Part shown: positions 29,011-54,528 of the stretch, piece by piece | Numbering within the stretch: the first letter of the stretch is position 1 | How the letters are laid out: every line of letters starts with the position of its first letter | Source of the DNA: an uncultured Candidatus Saccharibacteria bacterium | GTDB taxonomy: Bacteria; Patescibacteriota; Doudnabacteria; UBA920 | Length of the DNA: 55,601 nt | Reading direction: 5' to 3' | Assembly (NCBI GenBank): GCA_964477745.1 | Contig: CAYZEI010000006.1 | Location: forward strand, 1 to 55,601 | Translations under genes and position numbers: made by a program | The notes under the pieces: generated by a model | Seen by the model: the letters and a program-made list of their open reading frames with translations, nothing else | The model's database searches: none | Told to the model about the DNA's origin: nothing

Positions 29011-29032
29011 AATTTGAATTTAAAAAAAGTTT

Positions 29033-29605: not shown

Positions 29606-29650
29606 AAAAATAGCACGATTTTAACGGCCGTTAAAATCGTGCTATTTTTA
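29606..29650. terminator. 45-nt perfect palindrome / bidirectional terminator
   Basis: 'aaaaatagcacgattttaacggccgttaaaatcgtgctattttt' lies just downstream of the 71-aa gene on the minus strand. Confidence 0.75.
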
Positions 29651-29968: not shown

Positions 29969-30006
29969 CATGACATAAATTACGCGGCCGCGTAATTTAT
30001 GTCATG
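29969..30006. repeat. 38-nt perfect palindrome
   Basis: 'catgacataaattacgcggccgcgtaatttatgtcatg' lies between two minus-strand cassettes. Confidence 0.9.
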
Positions 30007-30008
30007 TA

Positions 30009-30044
30009 TAAAAAAAGACCCGCCAAGCTGTGATGCCTGGCGGG
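30009..30044 (-). terminator. rho-independent terminator of the 354-aa gene
   Basis: The stem cccgcca/tggcggg is followed on the minus strand by 'tctttttta'. Confidence 0.75.
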
Positions 30045-30065
30045 CCGTGAAGTGAGCAGTTCTTC

Positions 30066-31130: not shown

Positions 31131-31203
31131 TTGTCTTCCTCCTTGTACGTTACACCGCCTGCTAGGCAGCGATTGAATGAATAATACACCAAATTGCCAA
31201 AAA

Positions 31204-31230
31204 TAAAAAACAGCCCCCTGGCTGTTTTTT
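31204..31230. terminator. bidirectional A-tract/hairpin/T-tract terminator
   Basis: 'aaaaaacagccccctggctgtttttt'. Confidence 0.75.
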
Positions 31231-37752: not shown

Positions 37753-38007
37753 GTGAAACCAGCCCGCGTCAGTCAAAAATTGAAAACTAAAAAACTTAAC
37801 ACCCAATCTTCCGGCTTCAATTCGACCGAAGTTGAACCCGAGTTGTTAAAAGATTCGATCTCCGATAAAAGAATAAGCGAGTATAGGCAAATACTAAAAG
37901 ATAATCATAGCTCTGACGAACAGGTTAAAAAACGCTTAAGCTACCTTGAATCCCTATGCCACAATATTATAAGGCTTGAAATAATAAATTATCAAAATAA
38001 AAAATGA
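37753..38007 (+). CDS. small hypothetical protein upstream of the recombinase
   Basis: 84-aa ORF with a GTG start. Its stop overlaps the recombinase ATG (ATGA). Confidence 0.4.
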   Translation: MKPARVSQKLKTKKLNTQSSGFNSTEVEPELLKDSISDKRISEYRQILKDNHSSDEQVKKRLSYLESLCHNIIRLEIINYQNKK

Positions 38008-39620
38008 GTAAAGCAAGGAAAATAAGAATTATAAATGAAAATTACCCCTACACAAAAGCAATAATATATTGCCGTGTTTCTTCAGAGCGCCAAGTAAACG
38101 ACGGACATGGCTTAGATGGCCAAGGAGTTAGGTGCCATCAAAGAGCTGAATCACAAGGTCTTGAGGTGGTTAAGGTATTCCGTGAAGAAGGTGTGTCTGG
38201 AAAACTGTTTGACCGTCCGGCAATGGCGGAGCTTATAGGGTATTTAGACAATCATGCAAAAGATAGGTTTGTCATTATCTTCGACGACTTAAAACGCTTT
38301 GCGAGAGATTTGGAAGTTCATTTAAAATTGAAAGCGGAGTTAGTTACTAAACGAGGGGCAAAATTGGATTGTCTTAATTTCAATTTTGAAAACAGCCCGG
38401 TTGGTCGGGCAATAGAAAATATTATGGCGGCTACTGCACAATTAGAGCGCGAACAAAATGCAGAGCAAGTTATAAATAAAATGAAAGCACGATTAGAAAA
38501 AGGCTATTGGGCTTTTGGCCGCAGAAAAGGTTATGACATGGTTAAGAATCCTGTTCATGGTATGCTTTCTGTCCCAAACAAAGACGGACAAATATTAAAG
38601 GAAGCTTTAGAAGGTTTTGCAGCAGGGATTTATATCCGCAAAATTGATGTTTGCCGTTTTCTTTTACAGAAGCATTTTTGGAAGACACAAAAAGCCGAAA
38701 AATATATTGATAAAATAACCGATATAATGCGCGATCCTTTTTACGCTGGTCATATTGAATATTCTGCTTGGGAAGTCTCGCGCCGCAAAGGACATCATCA
38801 AGGTATTATTTCCCTTGAGACTTTTGATCTAATACAAAAACGCTTGCGTAAAGTTGACCTAAACCAGCGCATACGTCTTGATACATCGCCAGACTTCCCG
38901 TTGCGTGGAGTAATAATCCACGATGAGTGTAAAGGGCACCTTACGAGCGCCTGGTATCCCAATGGTAAGGGTAAGAAATACCGCAAATATGTTTGCCATA
39001 CTAAGGGTTGCCCAAGCTATAATAAACCTTTCTCCGCAGATGAAATGGAAAGCAAATTTGCAGAGGTTCTGAAAAAGGGAGCTGTAAAAAAGGAAACTGA
39101 TTTGATTTTAAAAAAAATATTTGATCAGGTTTGGGAAGATGAGGTGGCAAAAATAAAGGAGTCGGAGCAAAATTCAGAGCAACAAAAAAGAGCCCTTGAG
39201 AAAAGGCTCTCTGACCTTACAGATTTAATGCTAGCAGCTAAGTCCCCGGCGCTGAAGCGTAATTATGAAAAACAGTCAGTGAAAGCGGCTAGCGAAATTG
39301 AGACAATAGAGGGAAAATCAACGAATGGGATCGACCTAACTATCCCTTATCAAACCGCGTTAGAAAAGGCCACTATGTTGCTAAAAATGCCCTACATTGC
39401 TTGGAAAAAGCTCAATGTCCACGAACAGCACGCCTTGTTTTTTTTCTTTTTTCAGGAAAAACTTCCTTACTCTATAAAAGAGGGTTATCAAACCCATCAA
39501 ATTCCTTATGCTGCAAGGCTATTTGAAGATTTTGTAACCCAAAATACCCAATTGGTGGAGATGCCGGGAGTTAAACCCGGGTCCAAAACTAATTCACTTC
39601 CCAATTATTCACAAGATTAG
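38004..39620 (+). CDS. large serine recombinase
   Basis: The N-terminal resolvase catalytic motif is 'AIIYCRVSSERQVNDGHGLDGQ'. A recombinase domain, a Cys-rich zinc-ribbon region ('CKGHLTS...CHTKGC') and a coiled-coil C-terminus follow. 538 aa. Confidence 0.9.
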   Translation: MSKARKIRIINENYPYTKAIIYCRVSSERQVNDGHGLDGQGVRCHQRAESQGLEVVKVFREEGVSGKLFDRPAMAELIGYLDNHAKDRFVIIFDDLKRFARDLEVHLKLKAELVTKRGAKLDCLNFNFENSPVGRAIENIMAATAQLEREQNAEQVINKMKARLEKGYWAFGRRKGYDMVKNPVHGMLSVPNKDGQILKEALEGFAAGIYIRKIDVCRFLLQKHFWKTQKAEKYIDKITDIMRDPFYAGHIEYSAWEVSRRKGHHQGIISLETFDLIQKRLRKVDLNQRIRLDTSPDFPLRGVIIHDECKGHLTSAWYPNGKGKKYRKYVCHTKGCPSYNKPFSADEMESKFAEVLKKGAVKKETDLILKKIFDQVWEDEVAKIKESEQNSEQQKRALEKRLSDLTDLMLAAKSPALKRNYEKQSVKAASEIETIEGKSTNGIDLTIPYQTALEKATMLLKMPYIAWKKLNVHEQHALFFFFFQEKLPYSIKEGYQTHQIPYAARLFEDFVTQNTQLVEMPGVKPGSKTNSLPNYSQD

Positions 39621-40218
39621 CTAAGTTTAATACCTCTATGACAATAACTTAGCAAATAGTCATAAAGGGTAATTTACGTGTCTTAAGTTTGCGGGTGCAA
39701 ATCAAATCCGCAAACAGCAGTCCTGTATGAACCCGGGTGTCTAAAGTCAGGACGAACTTAAGGCCGGGATCTTAACTTAATAAATTAAGCTAAGACTGGT
39801 TGCAAGTCGGCGTTTTGAAACGCGGCTACAACTTTATTCCATGCGTTAGCATTTGTTTGTGTCCGAGGGATTTACGAGGCTTCAGACTGGCTCGTCTTGC
39901 ATATTAGAAAATGTCAAAGTCCTGTCAAAATCCGTCATCCCCAGTAGAATCACCTTGCAATTGTTCGCTGGTTTTCACCAACAATATTATCACAAGGAAA
40001 TGGATACCAAGAGATGGCCAATAGATTTAAATGCATATACACAGCTCACACTGTTGGTTTGCAAGGTAGCTCTACTGGGCATCCCCGTGGGCTCTATAAT
40101 ACCATAAAATTAGCCTTTTATCAATGCTCTAAGTTGGCTACTTATTATAAGTATAGGCAACAAATGGATCATATCTACATTATGATTCATTCCTTTGCCC
40201 ATTTTTGTTCGATTGATA

Positions 40219-41142
40219 TCATTTAGAAAGGTTTCCCGTTCTTCCATACATTCTCATGTATCTTTGTAATAACGTTTCGCTACCTATTTGCCTAGCCATT
40301 CGCATTATTTTTTCGCTGTGACATGATCTACAGACAGTTTTTAAATTACTTAAGCCATTACTCTTTCCATTTATGTGCTGAACAAAAAGATCCCTGCCAA
40401 ACTTCTCGTAGCTTTCTTCTTGAGTAAGCCCACAATTAGTGCATTTAAAGGCATCCCTTTCTAAAGCTTTTTGTCGATTACCATCAAAATTTAAATGGTC
40501 ATTTGCCTTTCTAAATCTTTCTTTGACTTCTGGCCGAGTTTTATATTCCTCCATATATTCTTTCATTTTTTTCTTCCTATCATCAATGTGCTTTAAAAAA
40601 GAAGTTCGTTGTACTTGTTTAAAATATGGGGATTTAGTATAACATCTCATACAATACCCTCTTATTTTGTGAGGTATGGAGCTAGTTTCACACATCTTGC
40701 ATTCCTCATAGTCTCTAGCCCATCTTTTTTCTTTTCCCATGTTAATTTTCTCAACAATTTCAGGGAAGTATTTTTTTAATAAAACTGAATCAACTCCTAT
40801 GGCTCTTGCGTAAGTACTTACACCAAAGAATTCGGAAGGATCTTGCAATACACTATTCTCCCTTATTTTAATTTCAATACATTCTTTCTCATTTTTAGAT
40901 CTCTGAATATATCTATCGAGTGCGATTTGTTTTATTTCTTCATGAGCTGCAATTTTTAACATTTTCCTGTCTTCTTGACTTAGATAGTAAGTAATATTCA
41001 AACTTGCCTTAATTTCGTTTTCCATTTGATTTACAACGATTTGTTGGATTCTGGATCTTGTAACTTTAAAAACCTTAGAAATTTCTTCCAAAGTTTTTCC
41101 ATTCTTATATAAATTTAAAATCTCCTCATTCCTATTAGACAT
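40219..41142 (-). CDS. HTH / zinc-ribbon / HNH endonuclease protein
   Basis: The N-terminal sigma-r4/LuxR-like HTH is 'GKTLEEISKVFKVTRSRIQQIV'. The zinc ribbon is 'CKMCE...CMRCY'. The C-terminal HNH is 'CTNCG...FVQHINGKSNGLSNLKTVCRSCHSEK'. Confidence 0.8.
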   Translation of the reverse strand: MSNRNEEILNLYKNGKTLEEISKVFKVTRSRIQQIVVNQMENEIKASLNITYYLSQEDRKMLKIAAHEEIKQIALDRYIQRSKNEKECIEIKIRENSVLQDPSEFFGVSTYARAIGVDSVLLKKYFPEIVEKINMGKEKRWARDYEECKMCETSSIPHKIRGYCMRCYTKSPYFKQVQRTSFLKHIDDRKKKMKEYMEEYKTRPEVKERFRKANDHLNFDGNRQKALERDAFKCTNCGLTQEESYEKFGRDLFVQHINGKSNGLSNLKTVCRSCHSEKIMRMARQIGSETLLQRYMRMYGRTGNLSK

Positions 41143-42022
41143 TTAGGTTATTTCTAATCTTGTATACTTCTAACAAACGGTCATCTTTTAAAGCATTTAC
41201 CATCTCTGCTAGATTTGTTATTTTATTGGCGGGCACTAATCTTCTGAATCTATTTCTAGTCTCAACATTCGATTTAAAGAGCACTAGGACCTTACTAACA
41301 AAATCAGCCCAAATCTTAGGTAACTTATTGTTCAATTCAATTTCTGGAACAAATAAATCTTCTTGGGTCAAAGCGGATACAAGCTGGGAAATATTATTCA
41401 AATATTCTCCCTTAGCAGTGGCACGGATGTTTTTAATATCTTTAATTTTGTTTAATTTGAGCAATTGAAAAATACTATTGTAGAAATCCACAAAAGCTTT
41501 TGAATAAGGTTCCATTTCTTTTAATTTCTGAGTCCGGGTATTTTTTATGCCTATTTTCTTGCTTTTTATGCCAATAATTTTTGACTTTATAACTCTAAGT
41601 GATTGATTTGAATTTAATAAAACCAATAATTCAGGATACTCCTTATTGGATAATTTAAATTTTGGATTTTCTAATAAAGGCAAAGCTTCTCTAAACAAGG
41701 AGTAAGAGATTAGCTTGGAGAATTGTCCTTTTATCTGGTTTTTACTTTCAAAGTATTTTTTAATCCTAAGACAATAACTTAAGAAGTCTCGTGTAATATA
41801 ACTCTTTTTAAGTCCTTCTGCTTTGCCATAAATCTGCCAATATAATTTATGCGGCTTATCGTCATGCTCTTTTAAATAATCTTCTAATTTCTTTCCAACT
41901 TCCCACATAATTTCTAAAACGCTGGCACCGCTTGCCCCACTATCAACAAGATCTCTGTACTTGTTATTGAGAGGCGTTATTTGTTCAATTAAATTTAAAA
42001 TGTTAATTTCGTTGTCTTTCAT
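41135..42022 (-). CDS. helical protein of unknown function
   Basis: 295-aa ORF with an 8-nt overlap downstream and a 20-nt overlap upstream. The N-terminus 'EIMWEVGKKL...YGKAEGLKKSYITRDFLSYCLRIKKYF' is only vaguely like the YhcG/DUF1016 N-domain. Confidence 0.65.
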   Translation of the reverse strand: MKDNEINILNLIEQITPLNNKYRDLVDSGASGASVLEIMWEVGKKLEDYLKEHDDKPHKLYWQIYGKAEGLKKSYITRDFLSYCLRIKKYFESKNQIKGQFSKLISYSLFREALPLLENPKFKLSNKEYPELLVLLNSNQSLRVIKSKIIGIKSKKIGIKNTRTQKLKEMEPYSKAFVDFYNSIFQLLKLNKIKDIKNIRATAKGEYLNNISQLVSALTQEDLFVPEIELNNKLPKIWADFVSKVLVLFKSNVETRNRFRRLVPANKITNLAEMVNALKDDRLLEVYKIRNNLNV

Positions 42023-43739
42023 AAGAGTTTATGTCCTTATTTTCAGTTTGACTTTCCAGACTGTTAAGGTTTTTATTTACCCACGGTTGTAGTACCGATT
42101 CTAAAAGATATTCACTATCCGTCAAATCATCAAATAGATCAGTTCTGCTGTTTAATATGGATTGGACTTCGGGCTGCTTTCCTCGCTTGTCAAAAAATTT
42201 ATCTTTAAACCTAATGGCCATTTGAGAAGCTAAGTAAGAAACAAGACGATAGGTAAGTATACGTTCTCCATATCGGTTTACGTGGGCACGTTCCTGAAAG
42301 TCAGGGTGAGTGCTATAGATTACGATCCCTTCGCCCTCGATAAATTGCGACCTTAATGAGGTGCCATCCGCCTTCTTTTGTTCTCTGTCTGAAAATTTTA
42401 CTGGAAAACCACTCTTCTTCTTTTCTTGGCCTTTAAGATCTGTATCGTCATCAGTTTTAATAACAGGAACATCATCGGTTTTGTCTGTTTCTGTTTCATT
42501 ATTTCCGAAGCCTCCGCCCGATTTTTTCTCAAAAAGTAAATCGGAAATATCTGACTCGGACACATTAATATCATCTCCCTGAGTGAGCTCGGTTTTAAAC
42601 TTCAAATTGTATTGGCGAGCGAGTTTTGCTAAAGCCGCTGATAGAATATCCTCTAGTTTACCCATTCCAGTATCAGCAGATTTTTTATTGATTTGGACTA
42701 ACTCTTCGAAAATTTCATCTTCAAAAGACAAAATTTTATCATAAACCATGCTTCTATTTTCCGATCTCTGGAAGTCGTCTCTCGGTAAAGTTGGACTTAT
42801 TAAACCCGCTATATCAATATAGCCAGTCAAATTAGAATGACCCCATAATTGCGAACCATATTTTGACTTATTTCTAAAAGACTTAATACTCTGTATTTCT
42901 TCAATTCTCCGGCCTTTGTTAACAAATATTGGCCTCTTACTCGGTATAATGTCCTCGGTAATCTTTAAATACACTTTTAATGGTAAATCTAATTTTGTAT
43001 TCGTAGTTACCCCTCTTCTCGTACTTGCCAATTCATTAATCTCTTTCTGAACTTTTTTACCAAGAAAATTATCATAATTAAAAGGCTGGCAAATTTCTTC
43101 TTCATTTCCAAAAATAACTTTTATTTCTAAATCTTGCCTAGCTAGGAGTTGTTCAAAATGTTTTTCTATTTCTTCCTTTAGAACTTGTGGATCCACTTCA
43201 TTCCACCAATCCTTTTTAAAACCGCTTATGGTGACTAAGGTTCCTGACTCAAAAGGAAATTTATTTTTAGATAACCTTTTCTCATCTTCTACATCCAAGG
43301 TATTGCTAAAAAGTTCAATATACAAACAATGGTCCATTTCTTTCTGAACCGTGGTAATAGACATCTTATCAGCGCAAGCCATATAAGCGTGAGCGCCGAA
43401 ACCAAACTGACCGTTTAACCAAGAAACGGTCTTTTTATTTGACTTCCCTATACTAGTTACGATAGCCAGGAGTCCATCTTTCCATACACCTTCTTTGGTT
43501 TTTATACCCTTACTCATACCTACACAGTTGTCTGCAAAAGAAACCGTCTTATTTTTAGGATCGATTGTGACTGAAATCTTTATAGGATAAGGATATTTGC
43601 CATATTGATTATAAAGGGTCTCGGCACTATCAAGAGAGTTGTCAATATACTCCATAAATATTCGCATACTGTGTTGGTATATATTGGCTACTTGATTTAG
43701 AAATTCGTTTGTGTCGGCTATAGTTTTTTTATATGGCAT
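42003..43739 (-). CDS. GHKL-superfamily (HATPase_c_3 / MORC-like) ATPase
   Basis: The Bergerat-fold motifs are the N-box 'MEYIDNSLDS', G1 'FADNCVGMS' and G2 'GQFGFGAHAY'. The Met at 43739 is preferred because it removes the overlap with the 76-aa ORF. Confidence 0.8.
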   Translation of the reverse strand: MPYKKTIADTNEFLNQVANIYQHSMRIFMEYIDNSLDSAETLYNQYGKYPYPIKISVTIDPKNKTVSFADNCVGMSKGIKTKEGVWKDGLLAIVTSIGKSNKKTVSWLNGQFGFGAHAYMACADKMSITTVQKEMDHCLYIELFSNTLDVEDEKRLSKNKFPFESGTLVTISGFKKDWWNEVDPQVLKEEIEKHFEQLLARQDLEIKVIFGNEEEICQPFNYDNFLGKKVQKEINELASTRRGVTTNTKLDLPLKVYLKITEDIIPSKRPIFVNKGRRIEEIQSIKSFRNKSKYGSQLWGHSNLTGYIDIAGLISPTLPRDDFQRSENRSMVYDKILSFEDEIFEELVQINKKSADTGMGKLEDILSAALAKLARQYNLKFKTELTQGDDINVSESDISDLLFEKKSGGGFGNNETETDKTDDVPVIKTDDDTDLKGQEKKKSGFPVKFSDREQKKADGTSLRSQFIEGEGIVIYSTHPDFQERAHVNRYGERILTYRLVSYLASQMAIRFKDKFFDKRGKQPEVQSILNSRTDLFDDLTDSEYLLESVLQPWVNKNLNSLESQTENKDINSYERQRN

Positions 43740-43743
43740 AGAT

Positions 43744-43974
43744 TTAAAATGTGAAATGCTTGTGCTTTTTAGGATAGTGGAATTTGGACTTGGTCTCTTT
43801 GACGGACCGTTCAATCTCCGCGAACATCTTATTTACTTCTTCTTCATTGTACTCGTAAGCACTTCTATTTGAGCAATTACTGAGCACTTTTAATTTTTTT
43901 AGAACTTCATTTGTTCTATATGCTCCTAACCGTTTAAAACGTTCTCTTTTGTTGTCTGAAATTTCTTTTGTCAT
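43744..43974 (-). CDS. small basic protein, first gene of the GHKL/HNH operon
   Basis: 76-aa ORF that ends 4 nt before the ATPase start. Confidence 0.5.
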   Translation of the reverse strand: MTKEISDNKRERFKRLGAYRTNEVLKKLKVLSNCSNRSAYEYNEEEVNKMFAEIERSVKETKSKFHYPKKHKHFTF

Positions 43975-44093
43975 AGATTTGCAATTTTATAATAGTAAGT
44001 ATATAATTCTAATGTAAGGATATATCATATTTATACCATTGTCAAGATCCTTATATATGTATATAATCTAATAATAAAATAAGCTTCTAACAA
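43975..44093. promoter_or_regulatory. divergent control region between the two candidate defence modules
   Basis: Two direct copies of 'gtatataat(t)ctaat', each containing TATAAT, lie at 43999-44013 and 44059-44072. They flank the inverted repeat 'taaggat'/'atcctta'. Confidence 0.5.
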
Positions 44094-44882
44094 ATGTACA
44101 ATTTACTCCCCACCCTAAGTCCACAGGACCAGTATCTTCAAGGGATTCTTTCTAAATATAAAGCGGTTCACCCACTTTTAAATCCCCAATTAAATTTAGC
44201 CCAACAGCAAGTAGTTTCTCATATAAAAAATTGGTCGGGAAACCAACTCAGTTCGATAATACTATCGGGGTCCAACGCAAAAGGAACAGCATTGGTAACG
44301 TCTGCTGATGTTGATTTATTTATTTCTTTAAAACCTACTACCGTTGAAAATCTAAGAGAGCTTTATAATAAGCTTGATACAAGGCTTAAAGATTTAGGCT
44401 ATTCAACCTTGCGTCAAAACGTGTCGATTGGCATATATCATAATCACTATAAATTTGACCTTGTGCCAGCAAAGCTACAGCCAGGCCTTACTTCAAACCA
44501 CTCGATATACAAAAGAAAGCAGGATTCTTGGCAACAAACAAATATACATAAACACATTTCGGTAGTGAAAAATTCAGGTAGAATTAATGAAATATTGTTG
44601 GCGAAAAGATGGAGAGAAATTCACAACTTCGAATTTCCATCATTATATGTGGAATTGACCGCCATAGACGCATTAACCGGCTTCAGGATTGGTGATGTGG
44701 CAAATAACTTTTGGCGGTTATTAACTTATTTATCAAATAAATTCATTAGTTCTAGGGTAATCGACCCTGGAAATACAAATAATGCGATCTCAGACGATTT
44801 AACTCTGCAGGAAAAACTCCTAATTTCAAATCAAGCAAAAGCAGACTTACAAAAACAACATTGGGAAAAAATAATTTGGTAA
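44094..44882 (+). CDS. pol-beta superfamily nucleotidyltransferase (SMODS / CD-NTase-like)
   Basis: 'LSGSNAKGTALVTSADVDLF' gives the GS...DxD motif, with the third acidic residue in 'KFDLVPA'. The C-terminal half is helical. 262 aa. Confidence 0.75.
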   Translation: MYNLLPTLSPQDQYLQGILSKYKAVHPLLNPQLNLAQQQVVSHIKNWSGNQLSSIILSGSNAKGTALVTSADVDLFISLKPTTVENLRELYNKLDTRLKDLGYSTLRQNVSIGIYHNHYKFDLVPAKLQPGLTSNHSIYKRKQDSWQQTNIHKHISVVKNSGRINEILLAKRWREIHNFEFPSLYVELTAIDALTGFRIGDVANNFWRLLTYLSNKFISSRVIDPGNTNNAISDDLTLQEKLLISNQAKADLQKQHWEKIIW

Positions 44883-44887
44883 CAAAT

Positions 44888-45634
44888 ATGAGCAAAAATA
44901 AGATCGATATCAAGACAATTTTCTCTGGCCTCCAACAACAAATGGAAGCCCGCCTAACGCTAAATAAAAAGGTTATAAAACACCCAACTACCAAAGGAGA
45001 CGCTTCGGAGTTAGAATGGGCAGATATGTTATCTGTATATTTACCCAAACGATACTGTATTGATAAGGCCTTCGTTATTGATTATGAAGGGAATGTGAGC
45101 GAACAAATCGATTTAGTAATTTTTGACAGACATTATTCACCTTTTATATTAAAACAAAATGGGGCAATCTATTTACCCGCTGAATGTATCTACGCAGTAA
45201 TTGAAATTAAACCAGATTTATCATTATCCCACTTAAAATATGCTGCAAAAAAAGCTACCTCAGTAAGAAAACTAAAAAGAACAACTGCTACTATCGTCCA
45301 AGCAGATAACCAGAAATTTAAACAAAAAGACCCCCCAAAAATATTAGCGGGAATTCTTACTTTAAATGGAAACTTATCGGTTGGTATGAAACAATATCTT
45401 CAAAACCTTAAGGAAGAGAATCGGCTTAATTTTGGGTGTTCCTTATCTGGGGTGCTTTTTACTCAAACTAACTATGACCCCTACGAGGTTGGCGATGTAA
45501 CTTATGAGTTTAAGACTCTGAAAGATAATCCAAATAGCCTAATTTTATTCTTTCTGAACTTACTTCAAGAATTGAGGAAAATGGGGACAGTCCCTGCAAT
45601 GGACTTAGAAAAATATATAAAAAATATAAAATAA
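44888..45634 (+). CDS. PD-(D/E)xK restriction-endonuclease-fold protein (DUF6602-like)
   Basis: 'KGDASELEW...LP..Y', 'QIDLVIFD' and 'IYAVIEIK' give an E...D...ExK arrangement. About 120 aa at the C-terminus are unassigned. The ATG lies 5 nt after the NTase stop. Confidence 0.7.
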   Translation: MSKNKIDIKTIFSGLQQQMEARLTLNKKVIKHPTTKGDASELEWADMLSVYLPKRYCIDKAFVIDYEGNVSEQIDLVIFDRHYSPFILKQNGAIYLPAECIYAVIEIKPDLSLSHLKYAAKKATSVRKLKRTTATIVQADNQKFKQKDPPKILAGILTLNGNLSVGMKQYLQNLKEENRLNFGCSLSGVLFTQTNYDPYEVGDVTYEFKTLKDNPNSLILFFLNLLQELRKMGTVPAMDLEKYIKNIK

Positions 45635-45644: not shown

Positions 45645-45705
45645 TATAAATCTAAATGGGGACATGACCCATTTAGGCTTTTTTGTACAAAGTTATTTAT
45701 TCACC
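45645..45705. repeat. direct repeat copy A (terminator hairpin + TTTTTTGTACAAAG + TTATT-ATT-AC)
   Basis: It is roughly 90% identical over its ~45-nt core (about five differences) to 47765-47822. It contains the hairpin aaatggg/cccattt plus a T-tract, which is the terminator of the nuclease gene. Confidence 0.8.
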
Positions 45706-45710
45706 ATAAA

Positions 45711-45746
45711 CATAAAAATATGCCCGCGGAATTGCTTCCGCGGGCA
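45711..45746 (-). terminator. terminator of the GH17 gene
   Basis: The stem tgcccgcggaa/ttccgcgggca has a 4-nt loop and is followed on the minus strand by 'tatttttat'. Confidence 0.85.
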
Positions 45747-45765
45747 CTGTGCTGAAACTGACTGA

Positions 45766-47697
45766 CTAACGGGTTACTGTGGTAGTGGCCACCGCCCCGC
45801 TCAGCGTTGGGAGGTTTGAATCTCCATACGCTAGCGGAATGGTATAGCCAATCGGTACCACGAATGCCGTCACCATATCGGCTTCTTCGTCGACACCTCC
45901 GGTGTCGATGTCGCAGATAAAACTTCCATCTGCATTTATTGTTGTTCCAGGGGAACTCCAATATGGTTTTGTCCACCACCATCCGCGAACGCGGATGTAG
46001 ACCGCGACCTGGTAGTCACTCGGCAGTACGTGCAGGACCGTTCCTGCAACGCTCCCATTGAGTGCATACCTTGGGGTTACAGATGTGAACTGGATGGATG
46101 CCTTGCCCGGTCCACCAGGGATGGGGTTAGGCGTTGGTGTGGGAGTTGGCGTCGGCGTTGGAGTGGGAGTTGGCGTGGGGTTTGGACCGGGTGCTGGAGT
46201 TTGAACAGGAACCGTTGGGCTCCAGTTGTCCGGAATGGTCTTACCGGAAAACACATCCAACATACCAGGTTTCAAATTCCCTTCCGAATCAAGTACTCCC
46301 CAGTTCTTTCCTTGCGGACCTTCATACCGCTCCTTCCACGGTTCGTCGTACGCTTCAAAGTAGAAGTATTTGACGTTCCGTGCACGCGCCCAAGACACAA
46401 AGTTCAAAAAGTACTGAGACGCATTCCTGGCGGAAGGCACCGCAGTATTGATGGTGTTGCCGGCACTCGGCCAACCGGTTTCGGAAACGATGATCTCCTT
46501 ATTCGGGTACTTGGCCTTGAGTTTTTCGTAGTTGGAATTGAGAGATATCATCGCCTCTTCAATTTTCGTCCCCTCCCAGTATGGGTAGGAGTTGAAGAGA
46601 ACTACGTCGCTTACGGCAACCACTTCCGGGTGGTCGTAGAGCGAAGCGAAGGTGTCAGCCGTGGCGACGATCGCCCCCGGAGCAGACTGCTTAACCCATG
46701 AAATATACGTGGCGAGTTGCGGGCCGGTAAGGTCCCGGCGATACAGCGTCTCCGAACCGACAATCAGCATCCCACCATAGCCGGCTTTGTAAGACGCAAG
46801 CATACTTTGAAGTTCCAGATCGTTGGCCTGGCTGTTGTTGTTTAACCAAGCACTGAGAACTGCTTTGACTCCATAGCGCTTGCAAATCTTCCCAAACATC
46901 TCCATGCCGTTGGTGTTGCCGTAGGCGCGAAGCCACTGAGTATATGGAGCGAGCCGACTAATCCGCTCGTCCAGTTGCTCTTCGCTTACTACAAAGCCCG
47001 TAGCCGGATCCTGAGTTCCGATGTACGGACCAAAGTCCAGCCCGTGCAAAACATAACTGACCGGCGTGCCCACCGTAAACGAGATTGGGTTGGACTCGTC
47101 GCCCGTGGTGAACCGGAGCCACTCCACCCAACCTCCTTCGGAGGTTTTGGGGAATGCCCCAGACAAGTACCACGCGCCCTTGTCGTCCGTCTTGCCAAGG
47201 CTTTGGCAGGAATAAGCACTTGCTCCTTGCGAAGCGCAGTGCTCAACCAAGGCATTCGGGATTCCACCGGTGTACTTGAGTATCCAACCTTGGTTGGGGG
47301 TAAAGTTGCCCCCGACCGAATTGTTTATCGTGAGTGTCCCCAAGGTGGGAACGCTAACGGTAAAAGCAATCCTGTTGGACGTTGCGCCGGATGGAAATTC
47401 CATCCATTGCACCCAGGTGCCTTCCGTGCCGGGGGTGAACGTCCCTGTGGCTTTCCAGACGCCCTTGGCGTCCGTTTTGCCAAAATTCGGCACGCATAGG
47501 GGTACGCGATCCCGAATTTCGCAGTAGGTGAACACCGCATCTGAATGCGGGCTCACGAGTTCGAGCGTCCAGGCTTGCCCCTTGGCAAAACCGCCACCGA
47601 CTCCACCGTTAATGGTCAAACTCCCGTTGATAACGGGAGCGCCATAGAGACTGACCGCCATAGTTATGACAGCCAGAATGCCTCTGACTTTCTGCAT
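45766..47697 (-). CDS. secreted glycoside hydrolase family 17 (beta-1,3-glucanase-like) with two N-terminal ~95-aa repeats, a Pro-Thr linker and a C-terminal beta-rich domain
   Basis: 'KEIIVSETGWPSAG' matches the GH17 nucleophile signature. The signal peptide is 'MQKVRGILAVITMAVSLYGAP' after the SD 'aaggaggg'. The linker is 'PNPTPTPTPTPTPTPTPNP'. Confidence 0.85.
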   Translation of the reverse strand: MQKVRGILAVITMAVSLYGAPVINGSLTINGGVGGGFAKGQAWTLELVSPHSDAVFTYCEIRDRVPLCVPNFGKTDAKGVWKATGTFTPGTEGTWVQWMEFPSGATSNRIAFTVSVPTLGTLTINNSVGGNFTPNQGWILKYTGGIPNALVEHCASQGASAYSCQSLGKTDDKGAWYLSGAFPKTSEGGWVEWLRFTTGDESNPISFTVGTPVSYVLHGLDFGPYIGTQDPATGFVVSEEQLDERISRLAPYTQWLRAYGNTNGMEMFGKICKRYGVKAVLSAWLNNNSQANDLELQSMLASYKAGYGGMLIVGSETLYRRDLTGPQLATYISWVKQSAPGAIVATADTFASLYDHPEVVAVSDVVLFNSYPYWEGTKIEEAMISLNSNYEKLKAKYPNKEIIVSETGWPSAGNTINTAVPSARNASQYFLNFVSWARARNVKYFYFEAYDEPWKERYEGPQGKNWGVLDSEGNLKPGMLDVFSGKTIPDNWSPTVPVQTPAPGPNPTPTPTPTPTPTPTPTPNPIPGGPGKASIQFTSVTPRYALNGSVAGTVLHVLPSDYQVAVYIRVRGWWWTKPYWSSPGTTINADGSFICDIDTGGVDEEADMVTAFVVPIGYTIPLAYGDSNLPTLSGAVATTTVTR

Positions 47698-47764
47698 AGG
47701 GCCCTCCTTAGGGGACTTCATTATAGTACAAACAGGACACCTACTCAAATCCTAAATTTAGGGA

Positions 47765-47822
47765 AAAAATAAAATGGAGCCTGGCCCATTTTAGGTTTTT
47801 TGTACAAAGCTATTCATTGACA
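47765..47822. repeat. direct repeat copy B
   Basis: 'aaaatggagcctggcccattttaggttttttgtacaaagctattcattgaca'. It runs into the TTGACA -35 of the next gene. Confidence 0.8.
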
Positions 47823-47845
47823 ATACCACAGAAATGTGGTATTTT
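47817..47845 (+). promoter_or_regulatory. sigma70-type promoter
   Basis: TTGACA - 17 nt - TATTTT, with TGn immediately upstream of the -10. Confidence 0.65.
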
Positions 47846-47925
47846 TTAAAGTCTACTTTCTTGTCTTCTTGTCCTCAAACCAGAGACAAAAATGTAGCTG
47901 TGTAAATCCACCAGAGGTGACAACT

Positions 47926-48189
47926 ATGCCCGGTACGACAAATCCGTTGCAGTTTCTTGGGGAATCTCTCGCCGCCGCTGACGGCGACAAATTCACGCCC
48001 GAAAAGTTCATAACCATGCTCGATGAGTTGTTCGCCGCCGCGAAAAAGAGCCCCAATCTCACGCTGATTGTTGTGGCTCGCCACAATGGTAATGTGGGAA
48101 TGCTCGGGGTTGCGGGCTCCGAAAGCATCAGCGGAAAGACAGGGTTCCTTGAAGCCCTCGAGCCGGTGATGACAGCACTGCAAAAATAA
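47926..48189 (+). CDS. hypothetical protein (GC-rich cassette)
   Basis: 87 aa from the ATG, preceded by 'agaggtga'. The antisense ORFs are rejected. Confidence 0.6.
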   Translation: MPGTTNPLQFLGESLAAADGDKFTPEKFITMLDELFAAAKKSPNLTLIVVARHNGNVGMLGVAGSESISGKTGFLEALEPVMTALQK

Positions 48190-48200
48190 GGAGGAAGTGC

Positions 48201-48473
48201 ATGTTACATTCAGTTGGACAATTGGTTGACTGTCCCGTAACTTGGGACGGTCACACTTTCACGGTGTACGATGAACGACTAACGCCGGGAATCCAAACCA
48301 GGCTGTCAGCAGTAAAAGAAGACTGCGGACTGGAAGACATGGACAACGGCGAAATGCACGGCAAGGTGACTGACTGTAATGCCGAAGGTCATATTCTCTG
48401 CCAGTTTGATGCTGAAGGCGCTGGCGTCTTCAACATTGCAGTCCCGCAAGGGATGTATATCGTCGTCTACTAA
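48201..48473 (+). CDS. hypothetical protein (GC-rich cassette)
   Basis: 90-aa ORF with the SD 'aaggaggaagtgc' before the ATG. Confidence 0.65.
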   Translation: MLHSVGQLVDCPVTWDGHTFTVYDERLTPGIQTRLSAVKEDCGLEDMDNGEMHGKVTDCNAEGHILCQFDAEGAGVFNIAVPQGMYIVVY

Positions 48474-48526
48474 CACCAAGAACAGGCCTTGGGGATTAAG
48501 GGCCACACGCAAACCAACACCGCATA

Positions 48527-48562
48527 AACTCGCAGTTCCCCACTGCGAGTTCTTTTTATTTT
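48527..48562 (+). terminator. rho-independent terminator
   Basis: The stem aactcgcagt/actgcgagtt is followed by 'ctttttatttt'. Confidence 0.85.
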
Positions 48563-48630
48563 AATTTCCGACACTATAGACAAGTACAAAGTTTTTTTGA
48601 TACTATAAAGCGTCTTTTAAGGAGGCTCAC

Positions 48631-49065
48631 GTGACCCTAATTTTCGGGAAGGTCTCTGACCTAACCCCTGAACAGCTGATTACTGCAATCCGACTAGCAG
48701 CACAACGGGAGTATGAACGACGTTTGCATTACCTCGCATATCACGACTGGGAGAAAGCTTGCCGTCGGGTGAAAACCGAAGACAATCCCAACCCGGCAGA
48801 TGATGAAATCCGCCCCGTTGCGGAAAAAGTTTACAAAGAGCGCATCAAACAAGAATCTCTCGATGAACGCAGATTGGCAACCGTACTACTCAAACAGGAA
48901 GGCAACAGCCACCCGACCGACGAGCAAATCCAATGGAAGACGGAACAACTTCACGAGGACTATAAACGCAAACAAGCAGAGGAAGACTGGCTCCAGACTG
49001 AAAAAAGCATCATCACGAGCCAGAGTGTTATGTACCCTATAGAATGGAGGAAATCAATCAGTTAA
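48631..49065 (+). CDS. hypothetical charged helical protein (GC-rich cassette)
   Basis: 144-aa ORF with a GTG start preceded by 'taaggaggctcac'. The putative promoter is TAGACA-18-TACTAT at 48577-48606. Confidence 0.6.
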   Translation: MTLIFGKVSDLTPEQLITAIRLAAQREYERRLHYLAYHDWEKACRRVKTEDNPNPADDEIRPVAEKVYKERIKQESLDERRLATVLLKQEGNSHPTDEQIQWKTEQLHEDYKRKQAEEDWLQTEKSIITSQSVMYPIEWRKSIS

Positions 49066-49090
49066 CGCTCTCAGGTCACCACCACACCCT

Positions 49091-49130
49091 ACCGCATACC
49101 ACCAGCCTTAATTGGCAAATGGTATGCGGT
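49091..49130 (+). terminator. hairpin accgcatacc/ggtatgcggt
   Basis: A 10-bp stem with a 20-nt loop and a T-rich tail. Confidence 0.55.
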
Positions 49131-49141
49131 TATTAATTTTT

Positions 49142-49172
49142 AACCACCGGCAAAAGCCGGTGGTTTTGTTTT
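49142..49172 (+). terminator. rho-independent terminator
   Basis: The stem aaccaccggc/gccggtggtt has an AAAA loop and is followed by 'ttgtttt'. Confidence 0.85.
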
Positions 49173-49216
49173 GGAAAATTTAGGGCTCTGTCCCCTTTTA
49201 TATAAACATAAGCGTG

Positions 49217-49245
49217 TTGACAAATGGGTAAAAAAATGCGATAAT
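49217..49245 (+). promoter_or_regulatory. near-consensus extended -10 sigma70 promoter
   Basis: TTGACA - 17 nt - (TGc)GATAAT. Confidence 0.7.
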
Positions 49246-49341
49246 CACAAGTTAAAATTTGTTTGTGCTAAATGCCGATTTATGGTCGCTGTTTAGGACA
49301 AACCAATTGTCCAAGTCTGAAATTCCGTAGGAGGATTCGCC

Positions 49342-50028
49342 ATGACGAATACTACCGATTCAGCCCCCACGCCCAGAGCGTTGGAGCTTGTCCCGTCGCA
49401 GTACTTTGACCGCCTGACTGCTCGTATGGAGCGGTCTGGCTACAAACTATTTTCGCGCGTGGCAGTCGACACCAACGACTGTCCGTATCATGTTAGTGTA
49501 AAGTATGCGAGGCATACGTCACTGTTCTTTCATCTCATCAACCGGAAGCTCATTATCCACTTTGAGTTTATTGAGCACGACAATCCCGGCTGGCACGAAC
49601 CGACTCAGTACTGGACCATTCGCTTCTACCCGATTTTCAAGTCGGTGAAGCGACTGGTGGAGATGACGTACGTCCCATTCGACAAGCGGGATCTCAACGA
49701 TAGTTCCAACCCGCTTCTCGACTCGATGCCCTTGTACGCAGAGAACTTGGAGATTCCGGGGTTCCGGCCGTACGGCGGGCACAAGTATGAGCAAGACTGC
49801 GCAACGGGAAAACCAATCAAGCCCGAAGATCTGGGCAAATGGATTGTCCAGCAACTGTACCCAATCTTAAGATACCTCGGGTACGGCCAGTTCCAGCACC
49901 TCCAGGTGACGGACTTCTGGCCTCACTACACTTTCCACGGCTCGAACACAATTTTCTGGAGTCGCTTCAACAATGAAGCGTTCAAAGAGATTGTGGAGCG
50001 CCCATGGGGTGGCGAGGACCTCCGTTAA
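49342..50028 (+). CDS. hypothetical protein (GC-rich cassette)
   Basis: 228-aa ORF with the SD 'gtaggaggattcgcc' before the ATG. No recognisable domain. Confidence 0.7.
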   Translation: MTNTTDSAPTPRALELVPSQYFDRLTARMERSGYKLFSRVAVDTNDCPYHVSVKYARHTSLFFHLINRKLIIHFEFIEHDNPGWHEPTQYWTIRFYPIFKSVKRLVEMTYVPFDKRDLNDSSNPLLDSMPLYAENLEIPGFRPYGGHKYEQDCATGKPIKPEDLGKWIVQQLYPILRYLGYGQFQHLQVTDFWPHYTFHGSNTIFWSRFNNEAFKEIVERPWGGEDLR

Positions 50029-50048
50029 GGCAAACTAGTATTCGATCG

Positions 50049-50090
50049 CAAAGACAGCAGTGGGTTTTCCCTGCTGTCTTTCCTTTTCTG
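50049..50090 (+). terminator. rho-independent terminator
   Basis: The stem aaagacagcag/ctgctgtcttt is followed by 'ccttttc'. A second hairpin, atacctat/ataggtat plus a T-run, lies at 50128-50157. Confidence 0.75.
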
Positions 50091-50211
50091 CCAACTTCTA
50101 AATATTTATAATTCTGTCCCCTTTTAAATACCTATGGAAATAGGTATATTTTTTTATGCCTTAATCCAGTAATGGACATTTTTTCAATTTTTTGGTATTC
50201 TATTTAGTCTC

Positions 50212-51147
50212 TTGAAGGTCAAACTTCTTGAGACAATATTCCCCGCGCCCAATGGGGACAAGGGCACAAGGAGGATCCTAGTGATCCAAACAGCGATTGA
50301 TAGTTTGTGCGGTATGATTAACAACATCCCACAGACGGAAGATGCTTCTAAACACAGGGCGAAAATTCTCCAAGATTTCGCCACCATGGTGTCCGAAGAG
50401 ATATTACGACGTGCCGGGTTCGACGAAAAAGACTCCGAGCAATGGAGGAGCAACCTGCTGGCAATAGTGGCATGTATTCCGTATACTGACGTGCCACAAG
50501 ACACCATTGGCCGTTGCGGTCTGTTCTTGCGCAACTTGCCCAGCTCTCTAACCGGGGAAGATGGTAACATCAGCTTGGCTCATGCCCTGGTTTTTGGAAA
50601 CAACCGAGTCATAGAGTTGAACGACAAAACCGGCAAGCCTCGCCGGGTCATGTCCTACGAAGAGGCGGCTCGGTTCTTGGTGTTCTGGCTCCAAATCAAA
50701 ATTCTCGAGATCAGCCGTAAGAACAACTGGGACCGAATTTCCGGACTCCCTGACCTGTACGACCGGATCGAGGCCATGACGGCCAGTCTCACTCAGAAGC
50801 CCATAAGTGGCGAAGAGCTTCAGCAGAAACTGGGTCTGCCCTACAACCCGGCAGATCTGCTGGCAGACTTGCACATACTTGGCCTTCCAATGAAGACATA
50901 CCATACGCTACTAAACTCATACGCAACCAGGAATTCCGGCTTCGGCTTTAGGATCAAGTCGCTCCGCTTGGACTACCTGGTCACACTGAAGCGGGCTGAA
51001 TTTCAAAAAGTAAAGAATCTCGGCAGAAAATCAATCAATGGCTTTGTCGAAATTCTTCGCAGGATGGGCCTGGACATCGGGATGACGATCCCGGATGAAG
51101 TCAAAGCCTGGTGCGAAGCCTTAGCAAAGGAGGAACCAACAGAATAA
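50212..51147 (+). CDS. protein with C-terminal RNA polymerase alpha-CTD-like helix-hairpin-helix domain
   Basis: 'VKNLGRKSINGFVEILRRMGLDIGM' closely parallels the RpoA CTD sequence '[23 protein letters not shown]'. The N-terminal ~230 aa are unassigned. The start is uncertain (TTG, no SD). Confidence 0.65.
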   Translation: MKVKLLETIFPAPNGDKGTRRILVIQTAIDSLCGMINNIPQTEDASKHRAKILQDFATMVSEEILRRAGFDEKDSEQWRSNLLAIVACIPYTDVPQDTIGRCGLFLRNLPSSLTGEDGNISLAHALVFGNNRVIELNDKTGKPRRVMSYEEAARFLVFWLQIKILEISRKNNWDRISGLPDLYDRIEAMTASLTQKPISGEELQQKLGLPYNPADLLADLHILGLPMKTYHTLLNSYATRNSGFGFRIKSLRLDYLVTLKRAEFQKVKNLGRKSINGFVEILRRMGLDIGMTIPDEVKAWCEALAKEEPTE

Positions 51148-51153
51148 CGGCAC

Positions 51154-51201
51154 GCGCCGTCTCACGCCCCCACCGGGGGTGCGAGACGGCGCTTTCATTT
51201 T
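51154..51201 (+). terminator. very strong rho-independent terminator at the right edge of the GC-rich block
   Basis: A 17-bp GC-rich stem (gcgccgtctc.cgccccc / gggggtg.gagacggcgc) is followed by 'tttcatttt'. Confidence 0.9.
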
Positions 51202-53630: not shown

Positions 53631-53659
53631 TTGCTATTTCCCAAATATTTTGCTATATT
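53631..53659 (+). promoter_or_regulatory. extended -10 sigma70 promoter of the 247-aa cassette
   Basis: TTGCTA - 17 nt - (TGc)TATATT. Confidence 0.6.
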
Positions 53660-53720
53660 TGGCCAGATAAAGAACAGCCTGGTGCTGTTTTTAATCTAAG
53701 AAGTGGTTAGGAGGTGAGCC

Positions 53721-54464
53721 ATGGCCAACGGTCTTTTGGCCGAAACGAGAACGATCTCCCTGGAGGTCGGCTCAAGAATTCTGGTGATTGGAGTTAACCA
53801 GACATGCGTCCCGCATAAATTCCACGCGCCCGGCGAACACCGGTGCGTCTGGGCAGATGTCGGAACAGCCAGGACTTTCCGGGAGTTGCCCGGGAGAAAC
53901 TTCAGTGCCGTTGTAATAAACGGCAAAATTAGCAATAGCATCGTCGATGAGATGATTGCCCTGGCAGATCAGGCAAAGGTTCAGACAATCCTCATCGTGG
54001 AAAACGGTGGGAGCATACAACGACTGATGGAGGACTTCCCTCTTGAAAATAAGGGAGTGATTACGATCGAAGTCAGTGGGGTTATTAAGGAAGTCGAGAC
54101 TTCGGCATCCCAAACCCCCAACCGGCAAACGCAAAACATCGCTCCGCCCGCGAAAATCCCTGAGACGCCACCGCCTGCTGTTGCCCAAGCGCCGGACAAA
54201 CCAGCGAAGTCTGCGGAACCCCAATGTGCCAATATTGGCATTGCGGAGATGTTCCTGGCGGCGGTCAATGCGTCCATCGATTCTCAGACCAAAGCAGCGA
54301 CTTTGGCCATGGGCGTTGTGGAAGAAAACAAACGGCTGCAAGCGCAGGTGGTTGACCAGGCGGAACGCATCATTCGCCTGGAACAAAAAATCGCTGGGCT
54401 GGAAAAACAAAACACCGACCTGCGCGAAAAAATAAGCGCAGCCAAAGCCCTGTTTCAGGGCTAA
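53721..54464 (+). CDS. hypothetical protein (GC-rich cassette): globular N-domain, Pro-rich linker, C-terminal coiled coil
   Basis: 247-aa ORF with the SD 'taggaggtgagcc' before the ATG. The fully antisense 235-aa ORF is Arg-rich junk. Confidence 0.7.
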   Translation: MANGLLAETRTISLEVGSRILVIGVNQTCVPHKFHAPGEHRCVWADVGTARTFRELPGRNFSAVVINGKISNSIVDEMIALADQAKVQTILIVENGGSIQRLMEDFPLENKGVITIEVSGVIKEVETSASQTPNRQTQNIAPPAKIPETPPPAVAQAPDKPAKSAEPQCANIGIAEMFLAAVNASIDSQTKAATLAMGVVEENKRLQAQVVDQAERIIRLEQKIAGLEKQNTDLREKISAAKALFQG

Positions 54465-54488
54465 GGAGGAAAAGAACACGAATCAAAC

Positions 54489-54528
54489 AGCGCGGGACCT
54501 TTATAGGACCCGCGCTACTTTTATTTAT
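54489..54528 (+). terminator. rho-independent terminator
   Basis: The stem agcgcggg.cc/gg.cccgcgct is followed by 'acttttatttat'. Confidence 0.8.

Follow-up and report, generated by a model that had tools for sequence, protein, structure and literature searches.

How do bacteria with tiny genomes gain new functions? The issue is open for the Patescibacteria, which make up a large and mostly uncultured share of bacterial diversity, and the locus described here raises it in a particular form. The window, by which we mean the whole 55,601-nt stretch that was analyzed (contig CAYZEI010000006.1 of assembly GCA_964477745.1), carries nine GC-rich genes in eight transcription units, all with a strong Shine-Dalgarno (SD) sequence, among AT-rich genes that have essentially none. 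A first-pass annotation of this sequence had taken the GC-rich genes to be recent acquisitions from a distant donor of higher GC. We propose instead that they are probably self-expressing accessory cassettes, drawn from a pool shared by related Patescibacteria and moving as whole units; accessory genes would here arrive, and be exchanged, as cassettes ready for expression.

Two sets of genes on one contig

The GC content of the window is 0.403. Measured in consecutive 500-nt pieces, it is 0.44-0.57 across 46.0-51.0 kb (the main island) versus about 0.30-0.45 elsewhere, and there are lesser peaks at 29.0-31.0 and 53.5-54.5 kb. The nine cassette genes have GC 0.48-0.55 and a GC content at third codon positions (GC3) of 0.51-0.69, and the 42 backbone genes have GC3 0.27-0.485, two ranges that are disjoint (Mann-Whitney P=3e-6). 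The sliding-window scan and the gene-by-gene values both bear out the first-pass annotation, which had called these genes visibly richer in GC than the backbone, and by their GC3 the cassette genes deviate from the composition of the host genome as those of an acquired island do.

The translation signals divide the genes in the same way. A 6-8 nt match to AAGGAGGTGA is found at most 20 nt from the start in 9/9 cassette genes, and the three SD strings that the first-pass annotation quoted are present where it had placed them. Any SD match at all is found in only 2/42 backbone genes, in both cases the 5-nt AAGGA (Fisher P=1.8e-8), so these genes indeed lack a comparable SD. The annotation had excepted from SD use the gene that it started at 50212, and that exception does not stand: translation likely starts at GTG 50281, and AAGGAGG lies 7 nt ahead of it. 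The 288-aa product from GTG 50281 is the one called by gene callers in three other assemblies, and a 41%-identical homologue (in contig L092) aligns from the residue of this GTG and has its own AAGGAGG ahead of it.

The cassettes and their signals

The cassettes, with their open reading frames (ORFs) and predicted signals, are the following.

45709..47764, minus strand: GH17 cassette; ORF 45766-47697, 643 aa, GC3 0.61
GH17 signals, minus strand: terminator hairpin 45720-45747; SD AAGGAGG 47703-47709; promoter TTGAGT-17-TATAAT 47748-47720
47817..48551, plus strand: p87-p90 bicistronic cassette; promoter TTGACA-17-TATTTT with TG, 47817-47845; terminator 48527-48551
47926-48189, plus strand: p87 ORF; SD GAGGTGA
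48201-48473, plus strand: p90 ORF; SD AAGGAGG; 11-nt spacer after p87
48577..49165, plus strand: p144 cassette; promoter-like TAGACA-18-TACTAT with TG, 48577-48606
48631-49065, plus strand: p144 ORF; GTG start, SD AAGGAGG; two hairpins follow, the second being the terminator 49142-49165
49212..50078, plus strand: p228 cassette; promoter TTGACA-17-GATAAT with TG, 49217-49245; leader of ~95 nt
49342-50028, plus strand: p228 ORF; SD AGGAGG; terminator 50057-50077
50079..51201, plus strand: p311/p288 cassette; promoter-like TGGACA-17-TATTCT with TG, 50173-50201
GTG 50281 to 51147, plus strand: p288 ORF; SD AAGGAGG; TTG 50212 is an upstream alternative start (p311)
51154-51192 plus T-run, plus strand: terminator of the p311/p288 cassette
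29023..29611, minus strand: p141 cassette; ORF 29096-29521; SD GGAGGTG; terminator ~29032-29064
29603-29575 and 29558-29531, minus strand: promoter-like sites of p141
30004..31230, minus strand: p354 cassette; ORF 30066-31130; SD AAGGAGG; terminator 30017-30046
p354 5' region, minus strand: leader hairpin and SD ~31131-31175; extended -10-like TGTATTAT ~31181-31188; upstream hairpin 31205-31230
53631..54516, plus strand: p247 cassette; promoter-like TTGCTA-17-TATATT with TG, 53631-53659; SD AGGAGGTG
53721-54464, plus strand: p247 ORF; coiled-coil-like C-terminus; terminator ~54489-54516

A consensus scan places a promoter-like site ahead of each of the eight units (47817, 48577, 49217, 50173 and 53631 on the plus strand; 47748, and 29603 or 29558, on the minus strand), with TG before the -10 in five. 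Over 44-55.6 kb the scan returns 39 sites against 18 expected. The first-pass annotation was thus right to see promoters near consensus, often with an extended -10, before these genes, but they are not special to the cassettes: similar promoters precede backbone genes (51225, 44039), and it is by composition and translation signals, and not by the kind of promoter, that the two dialects differ. The long hairpin terminators that it described are likewise present, a strong hairpin with a T-run closing every unit, and the best hairpin within 110 nt 3' of the gene averages -23 kcal/mol for cassette genes versus -12.7 for backbone genes, but strong terminators also close many backbone operons. As predicted from the consensus scan, from folding and from the edges of homology described below, each unit has the autonomous layout of a moron, with its own promoter, one or two ORFs and an intrinsic terminator.

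The backbone speaks the other dialect. As had been noticed for uvrD, TGTGATAAT ends 8 nt ahead of its ATG, which looks leaderless, and the argS loci of relatives (described below) support this reading: core genes there with an upstream gap have a 3-5 fold excess of -10-like hexamers 5-11 nt ahead of the start codon, such a hexamer preceding 42/161 core genes versus 17/180 accessory ORFs. The proposal that two expression dialects coexist on this contig therefore stands, with cassettes that are leadered and SD-led and a core that is SD-less and often leaderless-like.

A direct repeat of 61 nt (75% identity; 45648-45708 and 47765-47825), consisting of a terminator hairpin and TTTTTTGTACAAAGYTATT, brackets the GH17 cassette. 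This repeat may be an insertion footprint, or a boundary module that cassettes share.

The contig is continuous

The arginyl-tRNA synthetase (ArgRS; 21792-23552) is 81-85% identical to proteins of metagenome-assembled genomes (MAGs) named Candidatus Doudnabacteria or, generically, Patescibacteria or 'Saccharibacteria'. Judged by such matches, the backbone is that of a patescibacterium, Ca. Doudnabacteria. Its identified genes include ileS, argS, uvrD, smpB, recO and ksgA, and the gene order from uvrD to the histidine phosphatase gene (His_Phos; 11.9-27.3 kb) is conserved in six relatives. Beyond this block, each genome differs.

Abrupt switches of composition in a metagenome-derived contig could also arise if GC-rich fragments of some other organism had been joined to a Doudnabacteria contig in assembly or binning, a concern that the first-pass annotation had raised. 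We give this explanation a negligible chance. The eight units are separate and interleaved with backbone genes, and the spacers that flank them are continuous. L001, a Logan assembly, matches 100% over 39553-52669 and spans both junctions of the main island; two other assemblies match 100% inside that island, and the junctions are identical in assemblies of different runs (L001-L003). L091, which comes from another run and represents a distinct strain (98.5% identity), spans the right junction with the same arrangement of GH17, p87, p90, p144, p228, p288, Vut_1 and a gene of the F420_ligase family (CofE-like). Cassettes set in a backbone are seen not only in this strain but also in the genomes L090, L094 and L097, where single cassettes are embedded in low-GC backbones. 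With the junctions spanned both by other assemblies and by a strain of 98.5% identity, the contig is not chimeric, and assembly chimerism is excluded in practice. Sharp GC switches in contigs of the Candidate Phyla Radiation (CPR) need not mean a binning error.

Cassettes as exchangeable units in other genomes

The p228 cassette is the best-defined mobile unit. In L090, whose gene for transfer-messenger RNA (tmRNA) is 83% identical to that of the window, it recurs at 7853-8723 with 86% nucleotide identity from the -35 (49212) to the terminator (50078), and its neighbours differ. In that genome a copy of the terminator 51154-51201 comes straight after that of p228, and the p311 cassette is absent; since L090 joins the two terminators directly, the p311 cassette (50079 to ~51150) is an indel.

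The p354 unit is found in four contexts. It recurs with 77% nucleotide identity in L094 and 81% in L097, the single locus returned by a metagenome scan with the p354 family alignment, and its 3' boundaries agree within 4 nt (30004, 30008). In L097 the unit lies 1.6 kb from the tmRNA gene, in the opposite orientation, and in L095 a p354 homologue with 37% amino acid identity adjoins a tRNA gene and a type IV pilus operon. The p141 unit has 73% nucleotide identity to L094 1686-2270, where it comes directly after the p354 cassette and abuts the end of the His_Phos gene. L094 has neither the p71 block nor the fn3 surface-protein gene that the window carries, so that the p71 unit too is an indel between the two. 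The p311 homologue of L092 (41% identity) adjoins a tRNA gene, and L023 has a homologue of p90 that is likewise GC-rich and SD-led. Taken over these genomes, cassettes lie beside tmRNA in L090, L097, L011 and L013 and beside tRNA genes in L092 and L095. The break in synteny, the p311 and p71 indels and the varied contexts amount to the patchy spread, and the absence from syntenic positions, that are expected of an island.

What is conserved includes the leaders. The p354 leader, a 7-bp hairpin followed by GTAACGT..AAGGAGGAAGAC, is near-invariant in four genomes, among them L095; because the leader is kept at 37% protein identity, its association with the ORF is old. L089, with an ORF 76% identical to that of p228 and an unrelated sequence upstream, matches the 21 nt around the p228 SD exactly. 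The conservation of the p354 leader and of the flanks of the p228 SD argues that the SD-containing leaders are under selection, and hence used. No known Rfam family was found for the cassette leaders.

We also observed a leader element of ~50 nt (ccttctaagttYataaa..ctactttgt..ttttRGAAGGGGAAACCC) at L089 9917-9970 and L092 9922-9975, and also in L093. It heads unrelated cassettes, those of the p228 homologue in L089 and of the p311 homologue in L092, and has no Rfam match in L092 (L089 was not scanned). Leaders may themselves be exchangeable modules.

The comparison with strain L091 catches one exchange at the level of the allele. There are 99 differences between the window and L091 in 6.6 kb, and the stretch 49365-50045, in essence the p228 ORF, accounts for 69 of them. 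Another 14 cluster at 50265-50403, from the last part of the p288 leader into the 5' portion of its ORF. Elsewhere there is little: 2/1,645 aligned positions differ for GH17, and synonymous divergence (pS) is 0 for p87, p90, p144 and Vut_1 and 0.025 for the CofE-like gene. For p228, pS is 0.286 and nonsynonymous divergence (pN) 0.031, a pN/pS of 0.11. Recombination has thus replaced the p228 allele, against a background that is near-clonal otherwise, and purifying selection acts on the gene.

SD sequences mark accessory genes across relatives

Is the association of strong SDs with GC-rich genes particular to this contig? We compared loci of relatives, ~20 kb around argS per genome. Over 34 such loci, a strong SD is about 15x commoner in accessory ORFs than in core genes. 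In the 24 low-GC loci, where we call a gene GC3-high if its GC3 is at least 0.15 above the locus median, a strong SD is found in 14/24 GC3-high genes and 35/352 others (odds ratio (OR) 12.7, P=5e-8). A test blind to composition, which takes as accessory any ORF present in at most 2 other loci and as core any present in at least 8 loci, gives 46/175 accessory versus 3/178 core ORFs with an SD (OR 20.8, P=1e-12). Relatives whose genomes are GC-rich throughout are SD-poor as well (13/198), so SD use is not a by-product of GC. On L092, a low-GC contig of patescibacterial type, the genes for ribosomal proteins and translation factors have no strong SD.

The first-pass annotation had held that its proposal would fall if the same GC-rich genes with the same signals were universal in the lineage. 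This is true in part: the class of gene and its signals recur, but these particular genes are not universal. In the MAGs compared here, a strong SD in a lineage otherwise free of it is a simple sequence marker of accessory genes.

What the cassettes encode

In the GH17 protein (643 aa), a signal peptide and two N-terminal repeat domains are combined with a GH17 core, a Pro/Thr linker and a C-terminal domain. The domain matches PF00332 (E 6.6e-15, 56 bits against a cut-off of 28.2), and its core is nearest to the Rhizomucor beta-1,3-glucanosyltransferase of PDB 4WTP (E 6e-35, residues 246-479), with which both glutamate motifs align (SETGWPSAG, YPYWEG). Most likely the enzyme is secreted and active on beta-1,3-glucan. 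The family is widespread. Full-length relatives with 41-50% identity lie in the uniformly GC-rich (0.54-0.57), SD-using contigs L005, L006 and L009, and the closest relative, at 59%, is L004 1186-3033 (GC3 0.54, SD-led), on a lower-GC contig with a type IV pilin gene, an unrelated setting in which the pattern is seen again.

The other cassette proteins scanned match nothing in Pfam, PHROGs, NCBIfam or PADLOC (the last searched for p87 to p288), save for weak coiled-coil matches of p247 and the tail of p288, the C-terminus of which resembles the C-terminal domain of the RNA polymerase alpha subunit (E 4.5e-7); p288 probably binds DNA or contacts RNA polymerase. PDB sequence searches gave nothing for p354 and p228. 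AlphaFold models are too poor to use, with a mean predicted local distance difference test (pLDDT) score of 49 for p228 (7-sequence alignment) and 44 for p288 (3 sequences). The families searched are very rare, p228 forming 6 clusters and p288 2 clusters among 5.8 billion proteins, and p354 having 19 representatives among 1.84 billion. For p228, p311 and p354, every context that could be read is a GC-rich cassette in a low-GC, SD-poor backbone.

As a side observation, p87 and p90 are a pair of small proteins separated by an 11-nt spacer, a layout like that of toxin-antitoxin genes. No family match supports that assignment.

The tmRNA region and other neighbours

The landmarks between the two groups of cassettes are these.

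38004..39620, plus strand: large serine recombinase (LSR) gene; Resolvase and Recombinase domains; phrog_95, E 1e-60
39553..39942, minus strand: tmRNA gene (ssrA); RF00023, 137 bits; landmark of the hypervariable region in which cassettes gather
40219..45634: defence-type block between tmRNA and cassettes, of lower GC (0.31-0.36) than the backbone; HNH/HTH protein, unknown protein, HATPase_c_3 protein and two-gene cyclic-oligonucleotide-based antiphage signalling system (CBASS)
44094-44882 and 44861-45634: CBASS cyclase and NucC nuclease effector (PADLOC E 5e-79 and 4e-83)

The 3' end of the LSR gene overlaps that of the tmRNA by 68 nt, and the LSR probably marks an integrative element in ssrA of ~31.3-39.6 kb. 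A different LSR, of 21% identity, occupies the same position in L090 (3747-5925). The genes from 31.4 to 38 kb match nothing in Pfam or PHROGs except for the LSR, and no repeat derived from the tmRNA as an attachment (att) site was found elsewhere in the window. The p354, p71 and p141 cassettes lie at the far end of this putative element. The main island and the LSR element flank the tmRNA on opposite sides, the island on the 5' side, and the island does not appear as a tmRNA-targeted integrative element itself. Relative to argS, the orientation of the tmRNA is inverted between the window and L011. The neighbourhood is thus one of defence genes and variable DNA, and the cassettes may have a role in interactions with phages or a host.

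Three further observations concern this region and the backbone. Inside the putative integrative element there is a full-length match to the Rfam LOOT RNA (RF03000; 36966-37088, minus strand; 90 bits, gathering threshold 46.4). Between smpB and a PLD-family gene, a low-GC (0.32) gene at 24249-24667 encodes a four-helix protein like those of 23S rRNA intervening sequences (IVS) and bAvd; it has no tblastn match in six relatives (L010-L014, L042), and four tandem copies of TTAAAATG follow it, with a similar string at 31436-31462. There are also three families of palindromic intergenic repeats, at 11864-11937/18389-18462 (74 nt, 91% identity), 10692-10722/52640-52670 (a perfect 31-nt palindrome, 100%) and 6160-6197/6998-7035 (38 nt, 97%), which look like repetitive extragenic palindromic (REP) elements or bidirectional terminators of the backbone.

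Where do the cassettes come from?

In the explanation that we regard as probable, each unit that moves would comprise a promoter of the sigma-70 type, in many cases with an extended -10; a leader that bears a strong SD and, in p354, also a hairpin on its 5' side; a single ORF or a pair; and an intrinsic terminator. Its setting would be a host chromosome whose core is AT-rich, essentially SD-free and often leaderless, in which cassettes would gather at hypervariable spots: beside tmRNA, beside tRNA genes and at the end of the uvrD-to-His_Phos block. The cassettes may enter as DNA taken up by the cell, which would then recombine, by a homologous or an illegitimate route, at the conserved, hairpin-bounded spacers. 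The ultimate source would be a higher-GC, SD-using gene pool, possibly other classes of Patescibacteria or an unsampled mobile element. Some other patescibacterial loci, L068 and L046 among them, have higher GC and moderate SD use, and would be plausible sources.

Several points weigh against this explanation. Attached to the cassettes we found no mobilizing enzyme and no recognizable recombination site, and around them no target-site duplications except for the diverged 61-nt repeat of GH17. The search for donors found homologues in uniformly GC-rich contigs for GH17 only, and no donor for the other cassettes. Whatever the host, and down to protein identities of 37-41%, the ORFs keep a GC3 of 0.55-0.69, with an AT-rich promoter and leader attached. 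A long stay in low-GC genomes should have lowered GC3, and its persistence is a puzzle for models in which transferred genes drift to the composition of their host. An unsampled GC-rich reservoir may re-seed the cassettes, or GC3 may be kept up locally, by selection or by biased gene conversion in a recombination hot spot. The comparison across relatives depends on a crude ORF caller and on the ~20 kb per genome given above. That the SDs work in this host we infer from their conservation only; an anti-SD motif is detected in just 48% of Parcubacteria 16S genes (PMC9297842). No 16S rRNA gene was found in the window or in any compared locus, and the data pose a question about the ribosome: is an anti-SD present, and is it used?

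How do the alternatives fare? The first-pass annotation would have each gene come newly and directly from a distant, higher-GC, SD-using organism, for instance the host of an epibiont, with its signals still unadapted. Excess GC3 and SDs are the classic marks of recent horizontal gene transfer (HGT), GH17 has its homologues of 41-50% in the GC-rich, SD-using contigs, and the cassettes are absent at the syntenic positions of the closest comparable MAGs. That the genes are foreign or accessory we retain. A recent, distant donor is unlikely: no homologue above 50% is found in any GC-rich context, GH17 is the only cassette found to have relatives in uniformly GC-rich contigs, and p228, p311 and p354 were found only in low-GC, SD-poor contigs of the same type as the window. 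The AT-rich promoter and leader modules are common to these genomes, and because they are shared, transfer as cassettes within the group is indicated; the conservation of the p354 leader at 37% protein identity tells against unadapted newcomers as well. The native counterpart of that proposal, in which the genes have long resided in the Doudnabacteria pangenome and owe their high GC3 to no donor but to local causes, GC-biased gene conversion in a recombination hot spot or selection on properties of the mRNA, accounts for a GC3 that stays high over deep divergence in low-GC hosts, for GC-rich ORFs accompanied by AT-rich promoters and leaders, and for the coincidence of the fresh recombination tract with the most GC-rich ORF. 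It leaves unexplained the strong SDs and long leaders, unlike those of the core; the GC3 shift of 0.25-0.3 is very large for bacterial gene conversion; and GH17 has GC-rich relatives outside the lineage. We find it quite improbable.

We are no more inclined to see the cassettes as cargo of phages or plasmids, that is, as morons or remnants of a higher-GC, SD-led Doudnabacteria element delivered by LSR elements at tmRNA, which we rate as a slim chance. The layout of promoter, ORF and terminator with deviant composition does match the definition of a moron, LSR genes abut the tmRNA both in the window and in L090, three cassettes (p354, p71, p141) sit at the far end of the putative LSR element, and CBASS defence genes lie alongside. 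Yet there are no structural phage genes, neither the cassette proteins nor the genes at 31.4-38 kb have a PHROG match except for the LSR, and the main island is on the wrong side of the tmRNA for that element. IMG/VR holds no relatives of p228, p288 or p354, and tblastn found none of p354 and p247 in INPHARED phages and none of p228 in PLSDB plasmids, all of them weak negatives since CPR phages and plasmids are poorly sampled.

Preferring cassettes that circulate among related Patescibacteria, one may go further and suppose that Doudnabacteria, and perhaps other Patescibacteria, keep a cassette pool with an expression dialect of its own, built on strong SDs, conserved 5' leaders and GC-rich ORFs, and out of compositional equilibrium with the SD-free, leaderless core. 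We put this forward tentatively, as something we doubt more than we believe. If true, it would mean either an unrecognized reservoir or mobilization of hairpin-bounded units at tmRNA and tRNA hot spots, or a two-tier translation that is SD-led for accessory genes.

Comparison with known systems

Patescibacteria commonly carry genomic islands and show HGT, 83% of the detected transfers staying inside the phylum; uptake is proposed to go through competence and pili, and the islands include defence genes (PMC12455944). The cassettes resemble those islands as compositionally deviant accessory DNA, with defence genes, in streamlined CPR genomes. They differ in that the accessible part of that work treats islands and single transferred genes, and the cassette structure, the split between SD-led and leaderless genes and the clustering at tmRNA are not found there. 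Islands that integrate at tmRNA or tRNA genes are similar in that hypervariable DNA here borders on ssrA and on tRNA genes and in that a recombinase gene runs into the 3' end of the tmRNA, but the cassettes lie mostly on the 5' side of ssrA, outside the putative LSR element, and vary singly, and no att repeats were found in the window.

Integrons offer another comparison, since here too small, mostly ORFan, exchangeable, hairpin-ended units are arrayed at one locus. We rejected an integron: Pfam scans (50 proteins, ~47 genes) find no IntI or other tyrosine integrase, only the LSR; by inspection, the hairpins contain no attC core motif; and GH17, p141 and p354 are on the opposite strand. Unlike integron cassettes, these have T-tailed terminators without a shared attC core, their own promoters and mixed orientations.

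Phage morons, a concept credited to Juhala and Hendrix, reportedly consist of one or two ORFs with their own sigma-70 promoter and a factor-independent terminator, inserted between genes that are adjacent in relatives, and deviate in composition. Our cassettes share the promoter, the terminator, the one or two ORFs, the insertion between such genes and the deviant composition. They differ in lying in a bacterial chromosome, in variable regions near tmRNA and tRNA genes and not inside a prophage, with no phage genes and no PHROG matches except for the neighbouring LSR, and those searched have no match in viral contigs or phage records; they also differ from their host in the signals for translation initiation, which is outside the definition of a moron.

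Genomes rich in leaderless genes form group C of GeneMarkS-2 (PMC6028130). Like these, and like lineages with initiation of the Bacteroidota type, the core described here lacks SDs and often has a -10 box just before the start; unlike them, the split follows the boundary between core and accessory genes and comes with a jump in GC3, for which we found no description in the literature on Patescibacteria. Each kind of thing is thus known, as HGT islands, as morons and as SD-poor or leaderless lineages. It is the combination that appears to be undescribed: cassettes that are modular, a core and an accessory set that differ in their translation signals, and a GC content that does not drift to that of the host.

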